Source: Patescibacteria group bacterium (GTDB lineage: Bacteria > Patescibacteriota > Microgenomatia > UBA10105 > UBA927). From it: a stretch of 64,000 nt of DNA. Made by a program: the position numbers and the translations under genes. Positions 3,786-59,636 of this stretch are shown here, piece after piece. Position 1 is the first letter of the stretch. Each line of letters begins with the position of its first letter. Below the pieces are notes generated by a model. The model ran no database searches and was not told the DNA's origin. It worked only from the letters and a program-made list of their open reading frames with translations. The DNA lies in contig JAMCTH010000009.1 in NCBI GenBank assembly GCA_023379025.1, positions 69,092 to 133,091 on the forward strand. The letters run 5' to 3'.

Positions 3786-6275
<2,490 letters not shown>

Positions 6276-23960: not shown

Positions 23961-24236
23961 TTCCCACGAGAACGGGAAGCAGAAACACCAGAAGATAGGA
24001 GAGGTACACGTCTGCCTTGTAGTACCCGGCCGCGCTTGTTCCCCAATGTAGGCACCGGTAAACTCGCCGTCCACCCGTAGGACAAACACGTTTCCGAAGT
24101 TCCGCCAACCCGAAGCATCGATCCACCCGACATGAGGAACCATATGGAGCTCATGGACAAGGACGGCAATTTCCTCTTCCCGAAGTCTCCTCTTTTCAAA
24201 CTCCACCTTCATGCAAGAAGTATATACCACGCAGTT

Positions 24237-24788
24237 TTAAAAAATTCCTTCCAGACAAAAAATATTTAGCTTCTCTGCTTTTTGTGCCTTCTCACAAAGC
24301 GGACGCAAATCACAGTGTCGGCAGAGTGAATCATGAAGATCGTCTTTATGGACACCCAGTGTTCCCCGTTTCTGGTGAAGATCAAATAAAAGTTTCAAAT
24401 ATTTTCCTTCTGCTATCCTTGGAATCTCATCTCTGCGTTCATATCCGTACCATTCGTACAGCCGTTTATCGCCCTTACTCAAATTGCAATGTTTGCATAC
24501 CCGTATGGCGTTTTCCGGCGTATCTGGGCCATTGTGTTTTTTTGGAAGTATATGCTCTGTGGTTAGTTCGATTTGCTTTTCGCAATAGATACACTCATCC
24601 AAATGTTCCCGCTCCTTTTCCCATTCACGGAGTGTTGTAGACCATTCTATCTCGCCATCCCGCAATGCGAGAAACCGGTTCATCTGAAATCCTCGCCCCT
24701 GATTCCCGATGCAGGCGGATTTGGATATCAGCTTAGCATACTGCCAATAAATCGTATCCCGAATCGTTTGTGCGATAGGCGGAGGCAT
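24237..24788 (-). CDS. HNH endonuclease
   Basis: 183 aa; CIYCEKQ...EHILPKKHNGPDTPENAIRVCKHCNLSKG is a classic HNH/His-Me finger with a CxxC...CxxC zinc site. Low-GC DNA. Confidence 0.8.
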   Translation of the reverse strand: MPPPIAQTIRDTIYWQYAKLISKSACIGNQGRGFQMNRFLALRDGEIEWSTTLREWEKEREHLDECIYCEKQIELTTEHILPKKHNGPDTPENAIRVCKHCNLSKGDKRLYEWYGYERRDEIPRIAEGKYLKLLFDLHQKRGTLGVHKDDLHDSLCRHCDLRPLCEKAQKAEKLNIFCLEGIF

Positions 24789-24794
24789 AAGTAA

Positions 24795-25025
24795 CTAAAT
24801 TTTCCCTTGTTTCCTTCTATTTTTATGAATACGAACATGCTTGCCTATACTGATGACTCGTACATTTCGTTTTGTAGTTTTCCCACCTAGCGCTACTGGT
24901 TTAACATGGTGCGCTATGTTCCCCTTAGGCGCTCTTCCTTTCGGATAACCCTTTGCCTTCAAAACTCTTTTAAGTTTACCGGGGTTCCGCCCCTTCCTTA
25001 TCTGAGTCTTAGTTGGTTTTCTCAT
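24795..25025 (-). CDS. 76-aa highly basic mini-protein with HNH-like core (HH-x-P-x-ALGG...N...H..IH)
   Basis: MRKPTKTQIRKGRNPGKLKR... then IAHHVKPVALGGKTTKRNVRVISIGKHVRIH. Overlaps the hsdS stop by 17 nt and lies 6 nt from the HNH gene. Confidence 0.45.
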   Translation of the reverse strand: MRKPTKTQIRKGRNPGKLKRVLKAKGYPKGRAPKGNIAHHVKPVALGGKTTKRNVRVISIGKHVRIHKNRRKQGKI

Positions 25026-26391
25026 TTTCCTGGCCTCCCTTCTCTATCATCTCTTCAACTTTGCGTTTTGCTTCCTCCAATAATTCCTTCGATTTCTTCC
25101 GTGCCTCGTGCGACTGACGTACCAAGTCTGCAATTTTTTGTTGAGTGGATTCCGCCAAAACGGGAATAAGCATATTATCAATTGATTCTTGCGGGACTGC
25201 GGTCAAAATAGTTCCTGCGCATCGTTTTTTTAATTGCTTTTGCATTATCAAACTTCTGGCCATCACCAATAATACCTCCGGTAATACTTCATCACTTCGA
25301 AATTGAAAAAATCCTGTCGATGCAATATATCCATCTTGTTCTTCGTCGATAAGTGCGACTTTTTCTAACGATCCTTCGACGCTGGAAACGATAACATCAC
25401 CGGCTTTCAATAATCGTTTCGCTCTGCCCGGCGCCTCCTTACCCGATACTTCCTCATATCCATCAACAACGCCAATTGATGCATTTATGTTTGCAAGCTC
25501 GACGTACTTAAATGTCTCATCCGGTTTCTCGCCTGGTTTAAAATTTGCAGGTACGTCAAAAATAGTTTTCTTTAATGTTTTCGCTCCCCGCTTTTTTAAT
25601 TCTGACTCTAATACTTCATATTTCGGTTGAAAATAATCCGCATCTATCCTATTCGTTTTTGTAGAATCAGAAAAATTAATGACGTAACTCAAGTCATCGG
25701 AAAATTGTAAATTTTTTAACTCTAGCTCATCCAACAGCAAATTTTCTGCATCTGCATAGCTTTTTTTTGAGACATCAGTCATTCTAAGTGATTCTTTATA
25801 TAACGACTCAACCTCTTTGACTTCATTCTCTAAAAACGTAGGGATCAATATTGTTTTTGTTTGCCAAAGAAAAATATGTTGTTGAACGCTTCCTACTGGC
25901 AATCGTAACACCTGTTTTTTCCCATACTTCGAATTTAGAAACATAGCAATCATTAGGGCCGAATAGTTTGGTTTTAACGAAATCTTCACAATGTCTTGAT
26001 TGGAATTTAGCTTTTGCGGAATATTGAGAGCCATTGCGGCATTTCCAACAGATCCAGACATTGCCAATAAAACCTGTCCCTCATAAACGCGGGATTTCTT
26101 TAATATTTCATCAGATCTATTATCAATAAATTTAACGTCGTTATAATCTATATAACCTTCCTTAATATTATTGGCTTCAATAAATGGAATCCCATCTTCG
26201 ACCCATTCAATGTAATTTGTTAAGTCGTATGCACCAAAACTAATTAAGCTTTCAGATATATCCTCAAGTGTTTGATGGGGTATAGATTGGAGTTTTTTTG
26301 CTATCTCTAAATATTCCGGCTGGTAATATTCAGAGTCTATCCGTTGCGCCCCTTCAAGTTGAGATTTTTTAATAATTGAATATGTGGTCAT
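25009..26391 (-). CDS. hsdS: type I restriction-modification specificity subunit HsdS (two TRDs)
   Basis: 460 aa; N-terminal ...RIDSEYYQPEY, duplicated TRD architecture with a central conserved region; 4-bp ATGA overlap with the upstream gene. Confidence 0.85.
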   Translation of the reverse strand: MTTYSIIKKSQLEGAQRIDSEYYQPEYLEIAKKLQSIPHQTLEDISESLISFGAYDLTNYIEWVEDGIPFIEANNIKEGYIDYNDVKFIDNRSDEILKKSRVYEGQVLLAMSGSVGNAAMALNIPQKLNSNQDIVKISLKPNYSALMIAMFLNSKYGKKQVLRLPVGSVQQHIFLWQTKTILIPTFLENEVKEVESLYKESLRMTDVSKKSYADAENLLLDELELKNLQFSDDLSYVINFSDSTKTNRIDADYFQPKYEVLESELKKRGAKTLKKTIFDVPANFKPGEKPDETFKYVELANINASIGVVDGYEEVSGKEAPGRAKRLLKAGDVIVSSVEGSLEKVALIDEEQDGYIASTGFFQFRSDEVLPEVLLVMARSLIMQKQLKKRCAGTILTAVPQESIDNMLIPVLAESTQQKIADLVRQSHEARKKSKELLEEAKRKVEEMIEKGGQENEKTN

Positions 26392-26969
26392 AACGTCTTA
26401 TTCGGAAAGTTGAGAAATTCGATATATGAAAGAAATGCCTTTCCCTTATCGGTAATTAAATAGTGATCATTCCTCGAATGGATTAACCCTGCATCAAAAA
26501 GGAATTTTAAATAGAAATCGAAAGTCCAATTTTTTAATAGAGGAAATATATTTTGAGTGAAAACAAAAAATAATATTGTATCTTTTGATTGTTCGCCGTT
26601 TCTAGTCTCTTGCGCTCTTAATCTCTTTAGCAATTCTATTTGGCTTCCAAAAATAAACCGATAGATTCTTTCAAAATCTAAATATATTTGTGTGTAGCTT
26701 AAATCTTTTTTAATTTTTTCTATCTCTGATGTTTTAGGATTATTTTCTGCTAATTTCTCATACTGCGGAGGGGGTGATAAATTCACTCTAGTTCCGCCCG
26801 GTAAATCTGCGCTTTGAATCCGATTCAATAAATTTTTAATCTCTTGGTTAAATTTTATAATTAAAAATATAACTATAGAAGGCCAAATCAATACCTTTAC
26901 ATATTCAAGGATCAAAACCCAATCTATTCGCGAAACTGACCGTATGGTAGTTGACGTTGTTGCTATCAT
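26388..26969 (-). CDS. hypothetical membrane-anchored protein embedded between hsdM and hsdS
   Basis: 193 aa; one N-terminal TM helix (WVLILEYVKVLIWPSIVIFLIIKF) and a soluble C-terminal domain with winged-helix-like LLKRL...GLI...YLITDKGKAFLSYI. No recognised family. Translationally coupled on both sides. Confidence 0.55.
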   Translation of the reverse strand: MIATTSTTIRSVSRIDWVLILEYVKVLIWPSIVIFLIIKFNQEIKNLLNRIQSADLPGGTRVNLSPPPQYEKLAENNPKTSEIEKIKKDLSYTQIYLDFERIYRFIFGSQIELLKRLRAQETRNGEQSKDTILFFVFTQNIFPLLKNWTFDFYLKFLFDAGLIHSRNDHYLITDKGKAFLSYIEFLNFPNKTL

Positions 26970-26971
26970 CT

Positions 26972-28912
26972 CTACCTCCGAAAACTAAATTTCTGCTCTT
27001 TCGCAAATTCGATAAATTTATCTGCTATCTCATCCAAATCGTGGTCGAGGACTTTGCGACCGCGGGAATCGTACACATAGTTTCCCGAGGAATCTTTTTT
27101 ATAGACGTATTCGCCGGAGTTATCTTTGCCGCCGCGCTTGGAGACCGCCATAAAAATGGGATAATCGGCAAGCGGCTCACTCTCCCATTTTTGCAAAAAC
27201 AATACTGATGTCTTGGTTCCCGTGTGCGGTTTAAACGTATTTCCGTGCAGCCCGACGACGGCGAGAATACGCGCCTTGTCAAACAGCCACTGCCGGATAT
27301 ATTCCATATTGGTATTGTTAAATACTCCCTGCGGCAACACAATGGCGATTCTGCCGCCGGGTTTAACGAATTCAAGCACCCGCTCGATAAAGAGAACGTG
27401 CCGCTCTACCGTATTCACCAGCTTTCCGTTTTTCTTTCCGAACTCGTACTGACGGAGTAACCCAGGATCTTTGAGCTCACCCGCAAACGGCGGATTCGTA
27501 AGCACGAGGTCAAACGAAAAATTTTTAAACGTCTTTTCATTTTCTTCCTGCTCGCCGTAATCCTGACATTTCAAAAGCCGTTGACGTAGCTCCCGCCGCG
27601 CCTGCAATTTTTCGTCGTCTTCCCCCTGCCATTCGCGCGGATCAAGCGAGTTGAGCTTAAACAAATGCGACCGTCCATCACCTGCTATTAGCATAAGAGC
27701 GCGTGAAACTTTCGCCGTTTCATCGGCAAAATCAATGCCGTACAAATATTGTTTTGAATATTCCTGTTTCGCGTGTTCAGTCGATAAATACTGTTCTTTC
27801 ACCCAATTCATTGCACCAATAAGGAATCCTCCGGAGCCGGCCGCGGGATCCAACACATACTCGCCCGATTTCGGATTGAGCATTTTGACTGCCATCGCGA
27901 TGACATGGCGCGGGGTAAAATATTGCCCCTTCTTCCCCTTGGCCACTTCCGGAATCAGATATTCAAACGCTTCGTCGATGATAGATAAATCAGCGCCGAA
28001 AAGCCTAGCGGTTTCCATTTCTCCCACAACCACGGACAAATGCTCGGGAGACAATCGGATGAGTTCCTGTTCATAAAACGTCCCGGGCCATTTATATATT
28101 GCCTTTCGGAATAAATCGTTGATCGCCGTATACGTTTTTGCGGGATCTTTATATTTACGGAAATAGATTTCATTATCCGGCCGGCTTTCTGCTTCCATTT
28201 CGTCGTACAGCTTTGCGTAAATGAGTTTGAATACCTCGTTAAATACATCAACGCCGGCATTGGCGAGCACCAATTCCTCCATGATCTCTATCGCCCGCTT
28301 CAAATCAAATTTTGGATTGGTATCGCCAAGTGTCTTTTTTTCGCTCAATAAATCATCAATGGTTTTGTTGGCAGATGGAATATCCGGAAGCGTATCTTCA
28401 AATTGATTCGGATAATTCCGATACAAGATCACGCGGTCAATCCCATTTGACCATACGCCGATTTCGCATCCTTCCGCGTTTAAATAACTCTTGAGTTGAT
28501 CAATACCTTTTTCCTCCGTTGGGCTTTTTACTTCGACAATGATATACGGCGTCACCTTGTCGGTTTTGTACACAACAATATCCGCCGCCTTTTTATGGAT
28601 TTCCCGCCCGAAATGAATGCTTTTTTCCGTCTCCAACCGGTCATATGGATACCCAAGAAGCGCATGAAGCTTGTGAAGCCACAACTGCCGCACAATTTCT
28701 TCCGGACGACCGAGTTTTTTCTGTTCGTCGTATACTACGCGTGGATTTCCCGTTTTGAGATCTTTGATAAAAAACTTTTTTTCTTCTTCCCAGATGTAGA
28801 GTACCGAGTTGATATCAATACCCTCAAATTCCTTTAACCCATAGACGATGGAGGCATCTTTAAAAATTCTGTCAATAATTTCTCCGGCTTTATTCGGTTT
28901 TATGGTTGGCAT
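26972..28912 (-). CDS. hsdM: type I RM N6-adenine DNA methyltransferase HsdM with N-terminal HsdR_N-like PD-(D/E)xK domain
   Basis: 646 aa; motif I VLDPAAGSGGFL, motif IV TNPPFAG. N-terminal 150 aa contain ADIVVY...IIVEVKSP (D...ExK), resembling the N-terminal nuclease-fold domain of HsdR. Confidence 0.85.
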   Translation of the reverse strand: MPTIKPNKAGEIIDRIFKDASIVYGLKEFEGIDINSVLYIWEEEKKFFIKDLKTGNPRVVYDEQKKLGRPEEIVRQLWLHKLHALLGYPYDRLETEKSIHFGREIHKKAADIVVYKTDKVTPYIIVEVKSPTEEKGIDQLKSYLNAEGCEIGVWSNGIDRVILYRNYPNQFEDTLPDIPSANKTIDDLLSEKKTLGDTNPKFDLKRAIEIMEELVLANAGVDVFNEVFKLIYAKLYDEMEAESRPDNEIYFRKYKDPAKTYTAINDLFRKAIYKWPGTFYEQELIRLSPEHLSVVVGEMETARLFGADLSIIDEAFEYLIPEVAKGKKGQYFTPRHVIAMAVKMLNPKSGEYVLDPAAGSGGFLIGAMNWVKEQYLSTEHAKQEYSKQYLYGIDFADETAKVSRALMLIAGDGRSHLFKLNSLDPREWQGEDDEKLQARRELRQRLLKCQDYGEQEENEKTFKNFSFDLVLTNPPFAGELKDPGLLRQYEFGKKNGKLVNTVERHVLFIERVLEFVKPGGRIAIVLPQGVFNNTNMEYIRQWLFDKARILAVVGLHGNTFKPHTGTKTSVLFLQKWESEPLADYPIFMAVSKRGGKDNSGEYVYKKDSSGNYVYDSRGRKVLDHDLDEIADKFIEFAKEQKFSFRR

Positions 28913-28913
28913 A

Positions 28914-29552
28914 TTAGCTTACAGTCCTCCACTGTCCGGCTTTCAGGATGGAAATGACTTTTCCCTTCATTTCGACCAAGCTGGTAAAAAATATTGGCGG
29001 ATAATTCGGATTTTCCGGCTTCAAATAATGATACGGAGGCTTATCTTGGGAAATAAATCGCTTGATCGTTGATTCCTCGCCGATCTGTGCATACACAATA
29101 TCACCGGAGGCGAATTCTTTTTGACTTTTCACCAACACGTTGTCGCCATCATTAATACCCGCATTGATCATCGAATCTCCAGAAATCTTCAGGAGAAAAA
29201 CTTCGGCATCTAGCTTCGAAATATCTTTTGAAACCGGCTTCCAGTCTCCGTCGATAACGATTGATTGAAGTGGTGCCCCTGCATGACTCACGCCTAAAAA
29301 AGGAACAAGCGGATCTCTGCCTAAGGCTTCATATCCGTATGGCAATATCGCAAGACTGCGCGCTGCGGATCCATTGCGCTTGATGATCCGTTTTTGTGCT
29401 AATTTCCCGAGAAGATCTATCACTGACTGATTCGAAGAAACGCCGAGGCGCTCCCGCATTTCTTCAAACGTCGGCGGGTACCCCGTATCTTTTATATAAT
29501 CGTAGAGGATAGACAACATTTCCAATTGACGCTTCGTTAACGGCAGATTCAT
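28914..29552 (-). CDS. lexA: LexA-like repressor (N-terminal wHTH plus C-terminal S24 self-cleaving peptidase)
   Basis: 212 aa. N-terminus LTKRQLEMLSILYDYIKDTGYPPTFEEMRERLGVSS...IIKR aligns with the LexA DNA-binding domain. C-terminus GDSMINAGINDGD...TIKRF carries the Ser/Lys dyad. Stop lies 1 nt before the hsdM start. Encoded in low-GC island DNA. Confidence 0.8.
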   Translation of the reverse strand: MNLPLTKRQLEMLSILYDYIKDTGYPPTFEEMRERLGVSSNQSVIDLLGKLAQKRIIKRNGSAARSLAILPYGYEALGRDPLVPFLGVSHAGAPLQSIVIDGDWKPVSKDISKLDAEVFLLKISGDSMINAGINDGDNVLVKSQKEFASGDIVYAQIGEESTIKRFISQDKPPYHYLKPENPNYPPIFFTSLVEMKGKVISILKAGQWRTVS

Positions 29553-29700
29553 AATACTGCCATACTACCCGACTAAATATTCTGGGTCAACTGGAAATCT
29601 ATATATCAAATAGCATCATTATCCATAAAACCCTGCGGGTATAAAAGCGCGATCAGAAATACCTAAATGTAAAGTGTCTCGGGCCGAAAGTTTATTCGAT

Positions 29701-31407
29701 TTATGACAATTTCCCCAAAAAATCGTTTATCTTTTGTTCTATTGCCGAACGACGGTATGCGAGAAATTCTTGAAAATTATCCATCTCCCAAAGCCGTTTA
29801 TCTGCCGGAATAAGTTGGGACGTAAGCGCTGTCTCACCGCGTTTTGGAATAATTTCATTTGTAAAGTAATCGATTGGCTCTCTGTCTAGTATGTGCCTGT
29901 TCGTTTTCCCTCCGATAAATGCAAGGTTAGCAATTTCGTTTATATCCTTGGAGTCAATGTTCCGTTTGGTTAGCTGGGCTTTAGGAAATATATGATGCCA
30001 TTGAATTTTATGCGTATCCCCTAGCGTTTTATCCGAAAGCTGCAGCCCAGTCAGCCAATCCTTTGCGCCATTTGCCTTTAGTACAAAATACAGCATGGTA
30101 AATATAGGACTAACTGTCGTCTTACCCGCAAGCTCGCCGGGTTCAAGTTCAAATCGCCGTACGTGCTCCTTGAGCTTGGCAATCAAATCATCGAGCGTAC
30201 CTCCACGAAACAATACTGCTAAATCCGCATCCAAAATAGATTCCGAAGATCCCATTCCATAGTGTCCGCGTATGTGAGCCAGGAAAAACCATCGCAACAG
30301 CTTCTTTTCCTCATCCATGCTCAATTGCTCATTGTGAAGGTACGCAAAAACGGCGATTGGAACGACAAGCATGGGTGACGATAAATATTCCAGATTGTCA
30401 ATTCCAGCGTTTTTCCGAAGGAAGTTCACGGCAAACCGCAGGCTGTTTTGAGCAATATCCCATGCTTCCGCCAACTTTTCTTTGGAATACCGACCAATGG
30501 TCTTGAATTTGCTTTGTTTTGTCGCAAACACGGTCATGAAGCGCACGAGTAACCAATCAAACACATAATCTGAATCGTCCCCAAATGTCTCAGCAAAGTC
30601 ATCCATGAGATTCATAAATCCGCGCCATTTGGCTGTGATTTGTGCTAATGCCAGATCAGAACCCCGTAGTTTCACCCCAAGTGAATTTACGCGGACAAAT
30701 ATCTCCGTTACCTCCTCATACGACATTTCGCTCTCGAGGAGTTGTATGTCATACATATATTTTTCAATATCTTTTACTTTCTGCAGCCGATCGGAGTAAC
30801 GGAGGTAGTTGGGGTCCTCAAACGAGGTGACGCCCGCGCGCTTGAGAATTTCCGCATGGTTTTTATTGAATATATCCGATACGGATACCCATGTGGGTAT
30901 GTTTTTCAGCGCCCGGGACGTAACTACAAACGTCCGTTTTTTCAGTTCCTCCTGGATATCCCGGTCATCACCGTCATTTTCCATTTGTTCGTCAATATCA
31001 GCGGTTTCCGCTTCTTCATCCACTTCCAGGACTTCTATTGGCGGCCCTTCCGGATGCTCAAGATTAAAAAGGATTTCAATGGGCCGTTTTCTGTTCCTCA
31101 CAATAATCGGTTGCCCGGTTAATATTGCGGCAAGCGAGGTGATTCTCTGTTGGCCGTCCAACAACAACCATCTGCTGAGCGGTAAATTCGGTTTCGTGGC
31201 ATCCACGGACAAGCCGTGCGTTACCACATTTTCGGACGTTTGCCACACTAAAATACTTCCGGAAGGATAATTGCGATACAGGGAATCAAGGAGGTCGCGG
31301 ACCCGAGTTGCAGTCCACACGTATTTGCGCTGCATCTCCGGAAGCTGTAGCTCATCGTTCTGAACTTTATTAACCAAATCCCGAACGGAAATATCGCTTT
31401 TCTGCAT
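29701..31407 (-). CDS. GmrSD-family type IV (modification-dependent) restriction endonuclease, DUF262-DUF1524
   Basis: 568 aa. N-terminal ParB-like DUF262 with (L)LDGQQRITSL motif; C-terminal DUF1524 His-Me finger QWHHIFPKAQL...N...N. Confidence 0.8.
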   Translation of the reverse strand: MQKSDISVRDLVNKVQNDELQLPEMQRKYVWTATRVRDLLDSLYRNYPSGSILVWQTSENVVTHGLSVDATKPNLPLSRWLLLDGQQRITSLAAILTGQPIIVRNRKRPIEILFNLEHPEGPPIEVLEVDEEAETADIDEQMENDGDDRDIQEELKKRTFVVTSRALKNIPTWVSVSDIFNKNHAEILKRAGVTSFEDPNYLRYSDRLQKVKDIEKYMYDIQLLESEMSYEEVTEIFVRVNSLGVKLRGSDLALAQITAKWRGFMNLMDDFAETFGDDSDYVFDWLLVRFMTVFATKQSKFKTIGRYSKEKLAEAWDIAQNSLRFAVNFLRKNAGIDNLEYLSSPMLVVPIAVFAYLHNEQLSMDEEKKLLRWFFLAHIRGHYGMGSSESILDADLAVLFRGGTLDDLIAKLKEHVRRFELEPGELAGKTTVSPIFTMLYFVLKANGAKDWLTGLQLSDKTLGDTHKIQWHHIFPKAQLTKRNIDSKDINEIANLAFIGGKTNRHILDREPIDYFTNEIIPKRGETALTSQLIPADKRLWEMDNFQEFLAYRRSAIEQKINDFLGKLS

Positions 31408-31470
31408 ACTTCTGCCCTATTTTACACCCACCCCGCCCTTTTCGCGATGATAACAAATTTAAAAATCTCA

Positions 31471-32658
31471 TTACCTTTTATTCACTCGGTGGCGCGCTAT
31501 GCGGTAGCTGTCATCAAATAATTCGTAATAATCGCCGTAGATATATTTTTGTCCGTATACCGCAGTTCCGAGCGGCTCAAGTATATCCAGACGCATAAGG
31601 CGTTCGATCACGTTATATGCGCCCGGCGCCGTAAAACCTGTCCATTTCATAATTTCCGCGACTCCCACAATCGGCTGGCCAAACAGTTTCCGAACGAGCC
31701 CTAAGGTTAATGCTGCAGATTTTTTGCCGAGCATTTGCATTTTTGCAAAATCGCGGTCACGAAGTGCTGTAATCCGGGCACAGGTTTCTATAGACGATTC
31801 CGCTGTTTCCGCAACCCCATCCAAAAAAAACTCCAACCATCCGTCAACATCAGATTCGTCATCGTGATATGTTTGCAACTTCTCATAATAAAGCTTGCGG
31901 TACTTTTTAAAGTAACCCGACAGATAGAGAACCGGCAATTCCAAAAGCTTCGCATGCTGCATGTACATCGCGACCAGCATACGGCCCGTACGTCCGTTTC
32001 CGTCCGTGAACGGATGAATCGTCTCAAATTGTGCATGGATGAGTCCGGCTTTCACAAGCGACGGGTACTCATCTTCGGCATGCATAAACAATTCCAAGTC
32101 TTGAAGACTTGCGACCATATCTTCTGGCGCAGGCGGCACAAAAGATGCATCCATCGGCGTCTTGCCTCCGATCCAATTTTGACTCCTCCGGAATTCACCC
32201 GGGTACGCATGCTGCGTTGCCCGTGCGCCAGTCATGAGTTTCTTATGCAGCTCCCGGATCAAACGAAGAGAAATCGGTAATATTTCCGATCTCTTCATAC
32301 CGTAATTCATTGCCTCCACGTAGTGGATAATGTCATCCACGTCCGGCTCCAAACGCGATTTTTCTTCGGTCACTGGCGCTGCCACGGCATCTTGCAGTGT
32401 TGCTCTAGTCCCTTCGATTTGGCTGGAATAGGTAGCGTCTTTTTTGACAAACATCAAAAGAAAAAAATCTTTGTCCGGCAGTAACCGGGTGATGCCGTCC
32501 AGCTTGCCGACCAAACGGATCGCACGTTCATGTTTTTTATGGAGGAACGCTCGTATAGGGAATCCGCTCTTCGGTGGGAACGGGAAGGGCGTAAACGACG
32601 AGTATCCGTCTTTCTGTGCTATATACCGACCAATGCGTGGTTTGTTTATATTGCTCAT
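31471..32658 (-). CDS. Fic family protein (AMPylase-type; Fic_N plus Fic plus C-terminal wHTH)
   Basis: 395 aa; canonical Fic motif HPFTDGNGRTGR. Confidence 0.85.
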   Translation of the reverse strand: MSNINKPRIGRYIAQKDGYSSFTPFPFPPKSGFPIRAFLHKKHERAIRLVGKLDGITRLLPDKDFFLLMFVKKDATYSSQIEGTRATLQDAVAAPVTEEKSRLEPDVDDIIHYVEAMNYGMKRSEILPISLRLIRELHKKLMTGARATQHAYPGEFRRSQNWIGGKTPMDASFVPPAPEDMVASLQDLELFMHAEDEYPSLVKAGLIHAQFETIHPFTDGNGRTGRMLVAMYMQHAKLLELPVLYLSGYFKKYRKLYYEKLQTYHDDESDVDGWLEFFLDGVAETAESSIETCARITALRDRDFAKMQMLGKKSAALTLGLVRKLFGQPIVGVAEIMKWTGFTAPGAYNVIERLMRLDILEPLGTAVYGQKYIYGDYYELFDDSYRIARHRVNKR

Positions 32659-32699
32659 ACGAATATAAACATATTATACTATTTTGTTTATATTTGCAA
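32643..32699 (-). promoter_or_regulatory. sigma70-like promoter (TTGCAA-N15-TATAAT) with three TGTTTATAT/ATATAAACA half-sites straddling the fic start codon; candidate operator
   Basis: TGTTTATAT at 32643-32651, ATATAAACA at 32663-32671, TGTTTATAT at 32685-32693. -35 TTGCAA at 32694-32699 and -10 TATAAT (minus strand) at 32673-32678. Confidence 0.4.
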
Positions 32700-33767
32700 C
32701 ACCAATGTAAACGAACCGTGTAACCCTTTTCTATCCCCGGAGTGGGGAAAAATAGTTTCTGACACATGTAATTGCACCGTCCGGAACATATTTCCGCGAC
32801 CATCCCTCTTCACTCAATTTTGTCAATTTATCGTGAATTTGGCTAAAAAATCGGCGGTATTCACGTTATTTCATCGTCATTGCGCCGTAGACCAATCCTA
32901 TGGGAATCACAAAGATGCAGAGGGGGCTACCGGTCCGCCCACGATAAACCCGACTGCTACGATTCCGTCCCATCAACCCTCTCTCCCCCGTTGACAAAAC
33001 GCGCGCAGAAATCCCGATGCTTCAGATCACTGTTTGCACCGAAAGCACCCGGAGTGGAAGAGTGGAAAACGAAACGATGTCAGAAACAAACACCATCACC
33101 CGCAAACTCGTCCGGATCCGCAAGACCATCGGACACCTCCGCATACCGCCTGCATCGTTTTATGTCATCGCCTGCAGTCACCAAACGCTCCGCATCCTGG
33201 AGCGCACCGGTGATACCACGAAACTCCACACCCATGTGCTCCGTCATATGGCGGCGCCGGAACAGATTACACGTCTCGTCCGTTCGGCCATTGCCGGAAC
33301 CGACACAAAACCCCTCGCCGCGGCCTATGCCGGACCGCGCTCCGGATTGTTCCATACGGTTGCGTCCCTCTTGTGGTTTGGGGATGACGTCATTCCGGCC
33401 GTCATCTTCCCCGAACACAAAGGTCGAGGGAACGGACACGCCCTTCAGGAACTGGTCCCGGACGGCCCGGATGTTTTCCGATACCCACGACCTCCTTCAG
33501 ACGCTTTCGCCCGACAACGAAGTAGCGGTCCGGCCGCTCGTGACCATCGGGGGCTATCGCGACACTACTTCGGAGGACGGCATGAGTACGCTTCTAAACC
33601 TCGCTTCCCGCGTCAAAAAGATACGCATACTCTTCATCAGTGCAACTCCTCGGTGAGGCGGGGTTGCCCTCATGCGGCATGCCCTCATCCCCAAGCAGGA
33701 AATTTTGAAATCACCAAAACCAAATTCTTCAACGTCCTCCAGGGAATAAACGGTCCTGACATCGTCC

Positions 33768-59489: not shown

Positions 59490-59549
59490 GTCTCCAGTAT
59501 ATACTATACAAAAACCTCGCGTGCAATTGCCGGCAGGATAAACTTGATG

Positions 59550-59636
59550 CGGAAGGGGGGAGATTCGAACTCCCGCTGGGCTTACACCCACCACGGTTTT
59601 CAAGACCGGGCCGTTAAACCGCTCCGGCACCCTTCC
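59550..59636 (-). tRNA. tRNA-Ser(TGA)
   Basis: GGAAGGG-TG-CCG...CGG-C-CCGGT-CTTGAAA-ACCGT- long variable arm -GGGAG-TTCGAAT-CTCCC-CCCTTCC-G; 87 nt. Confidence 0.8.

Follow-up and report, generated by a model that had tools for sequence, protein, structure and literature searches.

The 64-kb stretch of Patescibacteria DNA analyzed here, hereafter termed the window (contig JAMCTH010000009.1), contains on its minus strand an open reading frame (ORF) of 193 codons at 26388..26969, which is designated X and encodes a membrane-anchored winged-helix protein. X belongs to an operon with the gene order lexA-RM-X-S-miniHNH-HNH (minus strand), in which neighboring genes overlap or are at most 6 nt apart; here RM denotes a restriction-modification (RM) gene that had been read as hsdM, and S the gene for the specificity (S) subunit (hsdS). 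It is strongly supported that the gap between the RM and S genes of this LexA-headed, Type IIB-like operon is a hypervariable cargo slot, and equally that one clade of the X family has been captured in it as cargo.

Gene X and Its Junctions With the Neighboring Genes

The stop codon of the RM gene (TAG, 26974-26972) is followed by two bases (AG) and then by the ATG of X (26969-26967), and a GGAGG Shine-Dalgarno sequence is located 5 nt before this ATG, within the 3′ end of the RM gene (26975..26979, minus strand). At its other end the stop codon of X (TGA, 26390-26388) overlaps the ATG of hsdS (26391-26389) in the form ATGA. The tight coupling on both sides that had been claimed in the initial annotation, a 2-nt gap after the upstream gene and an ATGA overlap with hsdS, is therefore seen in the sequence itself, and it is consistent with co-translation of X with RM and S. 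A consensus scan gave no promoter or terminator above chance that would set X apart from its neighbors, and a repeat search gave no mobility gene or repeat flanking X, no att-like direct repeats and no flanking inverted repeats, either at X or at the low-GC island described below.

A protein that is 99% identical to X (P0001, named at NCBI as "hypothetical protein, Patescibacteria group bacterium") is annotated with 175 aa, its start being placed 18 codons downstream of the ATG that is preceded by GGAGG (window 26916-26969). The 193-aa start is preferred over the 175-aa start because of the Shine-Dalgarno sequence and the full-length alignment of homologues, and the N-terminal tail of the public P0001 entry is probably mis-annotated. 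A word-indexed search found 12 close or medium homologues of X and a profile search found thousands of distant ones, and because of this conservation X is regarded as a real gene rather than a chance ORF.

Anatomy and Fold of Protein X

The initial annotation had described a 193-aa ORF with one N-terminal transmembrane (TM) helix and a winged-helix C-terminal domain, leaving the strand (minus) unstated, and this anatomy is borne out by the sequence, by Kyte-Doolittle hydropathy, by an AlphaFold2 (AF2) model and by a match to Pfam HTH_45. Kyte-Doolittle analysis gives a single hydrophobic segment at approximately residues 17-44, and the TM helix itself (residues ∼17-38, encoded at 26856..26921 on the minus strand), as located by hydropathy and alignments, carries a family-conserved W29-P30. 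The AF2 model, which was built from a 13-sequence alignment and has a mean predicted local distance difference test (pLDDT) score of 74, consists of a helix (residues 17-52), a disordered stretch (52-77), a second helix (79-105) and a winged helix (108-185, pLDDT ∼90). The codons for the cytoplasmic winged-helix domain (residues ∼96-185) occupy 26415..26684 (minus strand), and in the alignments a near-invariant motif, FERIYRFIFGSQ (residues 99-110; 26640..26675, minus strand), is found where the long helix meets the winged helix. E100, I106, F107, G108, S109 and Q110 are conserved to 90-100% in three alignments, including the 158-sequence family alignment. Across these 158 family members conservation is highest at W29-P30 in the TM helix and in a FERIYxxIFGSQIxLL block (residues 98-114), and the putative recognition helix is less conserved than either.

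Lysine and arginine residues flanking the TM helix average 3.1 on the C-terminal side versus 1.2 on the N-terminal side, with more on the C-terminal side in 110 of the 142 family members. Because basic residues are enriched on the C-terminal side, the positive-inside rule predicts an N-out/C-in topology with the winged helix in the cytoplasm. It is strongly supported that X is bitopic, crossing the inner membrane with a single TM helix that has a short N-terminal tail outside and that is joined through a flexible linker to the long helix and the winged helix in the cytoplasm.

The AF2 model gives the C-terminal domain the winged-helix fold of HTH_45, and the Pfam match itself (28.4 bits, with a cut-off of 25.5) is partial, covering residues 149-184 of X and profile positions 35-70 of 77. 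The structural neighbors of the winged helix are mostly MarR-type repressors and also include TubR, JetA and MukF. The net charge of the C-terminal domain is close to zero (+2 in X, with a family median of +0.5). A search of solved-structure (PDB) sequences with the family profile returned Sso10a alone (E 0.011), and assignment of X to NCBIfam Sso10a was rejected at 27.3 bits, far under the curated cut-off of 60. X differs from HTH_45 and Sso10a in that the match extends over only ∼35 residues and in that X has a TM anchor and the FERIYxxIFGSQ motif, whereas Sso10a is a soluble archaeal chromatin protein.

The X Family and Its Genomic Contexts

An exhaustive profile search returned 3,536 clusters (50% identity) at E ≤ 1e-3 and 2,253 at E ≤ 1e-10. 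The family members are ∼200-250 aa in length and match over their full length, and all of those named in their source are called "hypothetical protein." That X is part of a large unnamed family of TM plus winged-helix proteins, which mostly stand alone, is strongly supported. Among the contexts of the distant members are gyrA/GGDEF, the dcw cluster, and secA/BipA in a Minisyncoccales genome. A tblastn search gave no match to X in phages, and the plasmid matches were three and weak, all of them in accessory regions and including Legionella and Bacteroides plasmids.

The close relatives of X have a very different distribution. Homologues with at least 34% identity and readable flanks are always found beside the same RM and/or S gene, the linked loci being the window, L001, L002, L006, L007, L008, L013, L014 and L015, together with L009, which has an S stub. 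X directly follows RM and/or precedes S with gaps of at most 8 nt in eight of them (the window, L001, L002, L007, L008, L013, L014 and L015), and in L006 RM and X are separated by an NYN gene. The slot-located X proteins fall in one region of the neighbor-joining (NJ) tree of the family, a tree without support values. The initial annotation had made its proposal depend on whether homologues occur with hsd genes, and the association stands for the close clade and fails for the wider stand-alone family of thousands of clusters.

The Gap Between RM and S as a Variable Slot

More than 7,395 homologues of the RM protein were found at E ≤ 1e-50, and more than 120 clusters with 71-89% identity are distributed over many Patescibacteria lineages. 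The gap between RM and S was read in ∼10 loci, reached by way of the RM gene, out of these more than 7,000 RM homologues. It is empty in L062-64 and on a Klebsiella plasmid, and elsewhere its content differs from locus to locus: a GIY-YIG gene plus a multi-TM protein of 187 aa in L010, a PBECR3 toxin-type nuclease together with a 160-aa protein anchored at its C-terminus in L065/66, a protein of 203 aa that begins with a hydrophobic helix in L060, a ClpP-like gene in L061, a 291-aa protein without an assigned family in L012, and NYN plus X in L006. The possibility that the other slot proteins are divergent homologues of X was rejected, as hhalign gave a probability below 1% for the 187-aa protein of L010 and the 291-aa protein of L012, and blastp gave nothing for the 203-aa protein of L060 and the 160-aa protein of L065.

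The RM genes nearest to that of the window (74-89% identity) lack X, while the loci that do carry X have RM proteins that are 59-64% identical to that of the window, or ∼74% identical on short C-terminal fragments. Since the nearest RM genes are without X and the X-bearing loci have more distant RM genes, X has moved between loci. Base composition was also compared. In the window, X and S have a GC content at third codon positions (GC3) of 0.28 and 0.34, respectively, versus 0.51 in RM and 0.48 in lexA, and in the other loci the GC content of X is 0.30-0.34 versus 0.35-0.47 for LexA-RM, so that X is compositionally foreign in every locus. The S gene, above all its 5′ half, is likewise low in GC, and both X and this half are well below lexA and RM in every locus (window 25700-26969; L001, L006, L007 and L008). 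This suggests that X and the part of S encoding target recognition circulate by recombination as a cassette from a low-GC gene pool.

The Flanking Operon

The RM gene (26972..28912, minus strand) encodes a protein of 646 aa that combines an HSDR_N_2 (PD-(D/E)xK) nuclease domain with an N6-adenine methyltransferase (Pfam, PADLOC), the latter matching PADLOC MTase_I with 574 bits. The D112 / E127-V-K129 motif of the nuclease domain is kept in all aligned relatives, from Patescibacteria to Klebsiella and cyanobacterial proteins, and the best match in the PDB is the Type IIB enzyme RM.BsaXI (1.1e-35), Type I M subunits being matched at ∼1e-17. The S subunit (460 aa; 25009..26391, minus strand) has two target-recognition domains (TRDs), as indicated by two stretches of Pfam Methylase_S, PADLOC Specificity_I and an internal repeat, D1. 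No HsdR-sized helicase ORF is present in the 64-kb window, where the ORFs of at least 600 aa are those for BipA, phosphoketolase, a P-type ATPase, DnaG and the RM protein, and no others. The initial annotation had taken the flanking genes for the hsdM and hsdS of a classical Type I system. They are instead assigned to a Type IIB-like RM plus S system because of the PD-(D/E)xK domain, the RM.BsaXI match and the absence of HsdR, and the operon is in addition headed by lexA. As in BsaXI and BcgI, a PD-(D/E)xK domain and an N6-adenine methylase reside in one RM polypeptide and a separate S subunit contains two TRDs. To our knowledge, no Type IIB system is headed by a LexA gene or encodes a membrane protein between RM and S. 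Because the methylase polypeptide has its own conserved PD-(D/E)xK domain, the RM-S system of the window is, judged from its sequence, probably restriction-competent rather than a decoy. A homologue of RM in Picosynechococcus pAQ6 is annotated as one 1,179-aa product, which from its length alone is read as a fusion of RM with an S-like part.

The first gene of the operon (28914..29552, minus strand) encodes LexA, with a LexA DNA-binding domain and an S24 peptidase domain (Pfam). It matches NCBIfam TIGR00498 (lexA) with 146 bits, with a cut-off of 111, and the AG cleavage site, the Ser of GDSM and the Lys of KRF are all visible in the translation. In every Patescibacteria locus read, lexA is directly upstream of RM (the window, L001, L007, L008, L010 and L060-L066). 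Moreover, a block of 45 nt that precedes lexA is conserved in seven loci (the window at 29562-29600, L001, L008, L010, L060, L061 and L062) and was also found by the consensus scan. In the window it contains a promoter with an embedded palindromic operator (29562..29590, minus strand), which consists of TTGACC, 17 nt (CAGAATATTTAGTCGGG) and TAGTAT, and over the loci the elements read TTGAC(C/A), a 17-nt spacer and TAGTAT/TAATAT. The spacer carries an imperfect palindrome, CCAGAATAnATAGTCGGG, which is perfect in L008 (ACTGACTAAATAGTCAGT), and the candidate LexA operator is CCAGAATATTTAGTCGGG. Since the ATG of lexA is located only ∼9 nt after the -10 box, the mRNA is near-leaderless. From its sequence the conserved block looks like the LexA box of Patescibacteria, in a LexA-operated, near-leaderless promoter. 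X is most likely transcribed together with RM and S from this one LexA-operated promoter, and the operon including X would by implication be under SOS control. In L010 the order is recA-lexA-RM-..-S-recX-rny, and because the module adjoins recA and recX-rny in that locus its lexA may be the housekeeping LexA of the cell. In the literature searched, no paper was found that links LexA with the restriction systems of Patescibacteria or describes a LexA-headed operon of this kind.

Two small genes complete the operon. The first overlaps the end of S (24795..25025, minus strand) and encodes a very basic, mini-HNH-like protein of 76 aa, with weak matches to Pfam HNH and PHROG HNH, which may serve the system as a small nuclease subunit. 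In L060 the end of S is likewise overlapped by a gene for a very basic 72-aa protein (5508-5726), which is 34% identical over 50 aa to the mini-HNH protein of the window, with the same H..P..GG..N..H spacing. The last gene (24237..24788, minus strand) encodes an HNH endonuclease of 183 aa (Pfam HNH 4e-9; PADLOC PtuB-like; PHROG HNH).

Comparison With Known RM-Associated Systems

By analogy, X is closest in concept to RonA. The Ronin system of E. coli ECOR55 comprises HsdM-HsdS without HsdR and the 61-aa TM protein RonA, which is toxic alone, is masked by HsdMS and is released by Ocr/ArdA (Silas et al., bioRxiv 10.1101/2023.04.06.535777). The notion of a membrane effector that is masked by an RM complex derives from this system. 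X resembles RonA in having one predicted TM helix and, in the close clade, in the tight linkage of its gene to methylase and S genes in a locus without the HsdR motor subunit. Compared by description, however, RonA has 61 aa and no soluble domain, whereas X, with 193 aa, is three times longer and has a winged helix. The hsdM/hsdS linkage of X holds in the close clade and not in the wider family, the methylase of the window has its own PD-(D/E)xK domain, and the gene order and the LexA control are different.

PrrC of the EcoprrI system (Type IC) is likewise an accessory protein whose gene is embedded in an RM operon, and it is kept latent by the RM enzyme, being masked by EcoprrI (PMC3025547; PMC12707154). 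It differs from X in being a soluble protein of ∼400 aa with an ABC-NTPase and a ribonuclease, neither of which domains X has, X being membrane-anchored. The initial annotation stated that PrrC occupies exactly the same intra-hsd position, and this has to be corrected: prrC follows prrA and prrB and precedes prrD, where prrA, prrB and prrD are the restriction-modification genes (PMC3025547). X, in contrast, lies between the methylase and S genes in a window that has no HsdR-sized ORF. We take prrA, prrB and prrD to be hsdM, hsdS and hsdR, which would place prrC between hsdS and hsdR and not in the gap between M and S. The same annotation was right that X is not PrrC. The P-loop/ABC motif (GxxxxGK[ST]) is absent from its sequence, Pfam gives HTH_45 alone and PADLOC gives no match, and X was rejected as a PrrC for its lack of Walker motifs, its length of 193 aa, its winged-helix C-terminal domain and its other position in the operon.

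C proteins of RM systems are small, soluble proteins of the XRE-type helix-turn-helix class that are encoded upstream of the restriction gene, and X was rejected as a C protein as it has a winged helix rather than an XRE helix-turn-helix, is TM-anchored and is encoded mid-operon. MADS, the methylation-associated defense system, carries two genes, mad3 and mad4, between its methylase (mad2) and S (mad5) genes, both of which are needed for defense, and MAD2 and MAD5 are the nearest NCBIfam/PADLOC relatives of the RM and S proteins of the window. The window proteins, however, score 297 and 154 against cut-offs of 720 and 400, respectively, and the mandatory mad6-8 are absent. X was rejected as Mad3/4, with no PADLOC or NCBIfam MADS match, and as a member of any PADLOC defense model or PHROG family, with no match or a marginal winged-helix match. 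An accessory gene embedded in an RM operon is of a known kind, and X comes from an uncharacterized family.

Possible Function of X

Taken jointly, the anatomical and genomic statements made above on X, its family, the slot and the operon are very probably correct. For the function of X we tentatively favor an analogy with RonA or PrrC, according to which X would serve the RM complex as an accessory, "second-line" module, and we regard this as possible rather than probable. The winged-helix domain of X would dock either on the RM-S complex or on DNA that this complex holds. If that complex were disabled by a phage anti-restriction factor, or if the operon were de-repressed by DNA damage, the TM/helix part of X would then act on the membrane, so that the cell stops growing or the invader is kept out. 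The idea of an RM-embedded accessory protein is supported by the RM-S slot being a site of accessory genes, some of which encode toxin-type nucleases and others small proteins of the membrane. Effectors of abortive infection are usually of one or the other of these two kinds, and the suggestion of the initial annotation that X is an RM-associated abortive-infection or sensor component is plausible. Further points in favor are the close packing of the X clade with RM and/or S, the grouping of the slot-located X proteins in the NJ tree, the precedents of RonA, PrrC and the two interposed MADS genes, the location in a low-GC island with SoFic and a GmrSD/HEC-05-type gene, and the conserved LexA promoter/operator together with the intact self-cleavage motif of LexA.

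Several observations weigh against such a second-line role. The single TM helix of X is not in itself a pore, and DNA binding is not self-evident, since the winged-helix domain has nearly no net charge. X is rare, with 12 close or medium homologues versus more than 7,395 of RM, and because it is absent from the closest RM genes it is dispensable for the RM enzyme. Beside the distant members of the family tblastn and phmmer found no RM, S, LexA or HNH gene, and among 75 neighbors of the wider family Pfam and PADLOC revealed no recurrent family, ∼5 of these neighbors having any defense match. Since most of the family is not beside any RM gene, a core function that is independent of RM is likely. 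In addition, in L009 the hsdS gene downstream of an intact X survives as an in-frame stub of 61 aa (807-989), in which the conserved N-terminus is joined to the C-terminal helix and both TRDs are deleted, and which is followed by a mannosyltransferase gene. That X is intact next to an S stub speaks against its being a toxin whose masking requires S.

The survival of X beyond S in L009 is in line with a role unrelated to restriction, in which X would be hitch-hiking cargo that performs the membrane function of its family from a recombination-permissive gap in a conserved, expressed operon. This we consider a serious, if rather unlikely, alternative. It would account for the stand-alone occurrence of the wider family in housekeeping or miscellaneous contexts, for slot contents that are unrelated between loci and incongruent with RM similarity, for the foreign composition of X relative to LexA-RM in every locus, and for the presence in or beside the same operon of GIY-YIG and HNH, which are classic families of selfish endonucleases. 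It sits poorly, however, with intergenic distances near zero on both sides in eight loci despite a protein divergence of 43-68%, with the coherence of the slot clade in the NJ tree, and with the failure to find a mobility gene or repeat flanking X. Gene spacing that is consistent with co-translation of X with RM and S would equally suit a membrane tether, whose winged helix binds RM-S or DNA and thereby holds restriction and modification at the inner membrane, where phage or transforming DNA enters the cell. The predicted N-out/C-in topology, with a flexible linker of ∼25 residues from the membrane to the winged helix, agrees with this, as do the DNA-partition and kleisin-type winged helices (TubR, JetA and MukF) among the closest folds, and Patescibacteria depend on DNA uptake. 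Nevertheless, the winged-helix domain is not basic, most LexA-RM-S operons lack X, and those members of the family that are not found in RM loci would require a different client. A tether is likewise a serious, if unlikely, alternative.

The fold itself, a winged helix-turn-helix with mostly MarR-type repressors as structural neighbors and a Pfam HTH_45 match, could also be that of a membrane-sequestered transcriptional controller of the operon acting in the role of a C protein. However, the operon is already headed by an autoregulatory LexA with a conserved operator, X is encoded mid-operon, is membrane-anchored and has a nearly neutral charge, and its most conserved residues are outside the recognition helix, all of which makes this very unlikely. 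The second-line role that we tentatively favor can also be extended, by analogy, into a broader scheme that we think quite doubtful. X would then be the founder of a class of RM-guard effectors that are held by a Type IIB-like RM-S complex and freed by anti-restriction proteins or by LexA cleavage to arrest the cell, the stand-alone family of ∼2,000 clusters would consist of single-gene membrane abortive-infection or exclusion proteins, and the RM-S gap would be a docking slot for interchangeable second-line effectors.

The Surrounding Genomic Island

The operon is part of a low-GC island of ∼9 kb (window 24000-33000), where the GC content is 0.31-0.50 versus 0.55-0.60 in the genome. The island also contains a gene of the GmrSD_N/HEC-05 type (DUF262; 29701-31407) and a SoFic gene (31471-32658). 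On the Klebsiella pneumoniae plasmid (NZ_LR890357.1, L057), S comes after an RM homologue with 44% identity, and next to it are a hypothetical gene and then two DUF262 genes. With DUF262 genes in L057 and a DUF262/GmrSD-type gene adjoining the operon of the window, the pairing of RM with a Type IV system may be recurrent. Elsewhere in the window, a tRNA gene on the minus strand (59549-59636) is called tRNA-Ser (anticodon tga) by ARAGORN and matches Rfam tRNA-Sec with 50.6, barely exceeding the gathering score of 47. This gene is part of a tRNA cluster (55.6-60.5 kb) with four Ser and two Arg genes.

Significance for Patescibacteria

Patescibacteria largely lack CRISPR and are thought to rely on restriction systems. 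Accessory genes of RM operons, such as PrrC, RonA and Mad3/4, have repeatedly proved to be second-line immune effectors. The analysis describes a very widespread LexA-headed, Type IIB-like operon of Patescibacteria with a swappable slot between its two core genes, and X offers an initial genomic entry point to a large unnamed family whose members combine a membrane anchor with a winged helix. If it is true that the slot genes guard the RM enzyme, the slot would be a compact natural library of such effectors, and if they are not guards, it would still be of use as a marker for the exchange of cassettes by recombination in reduced genomes.

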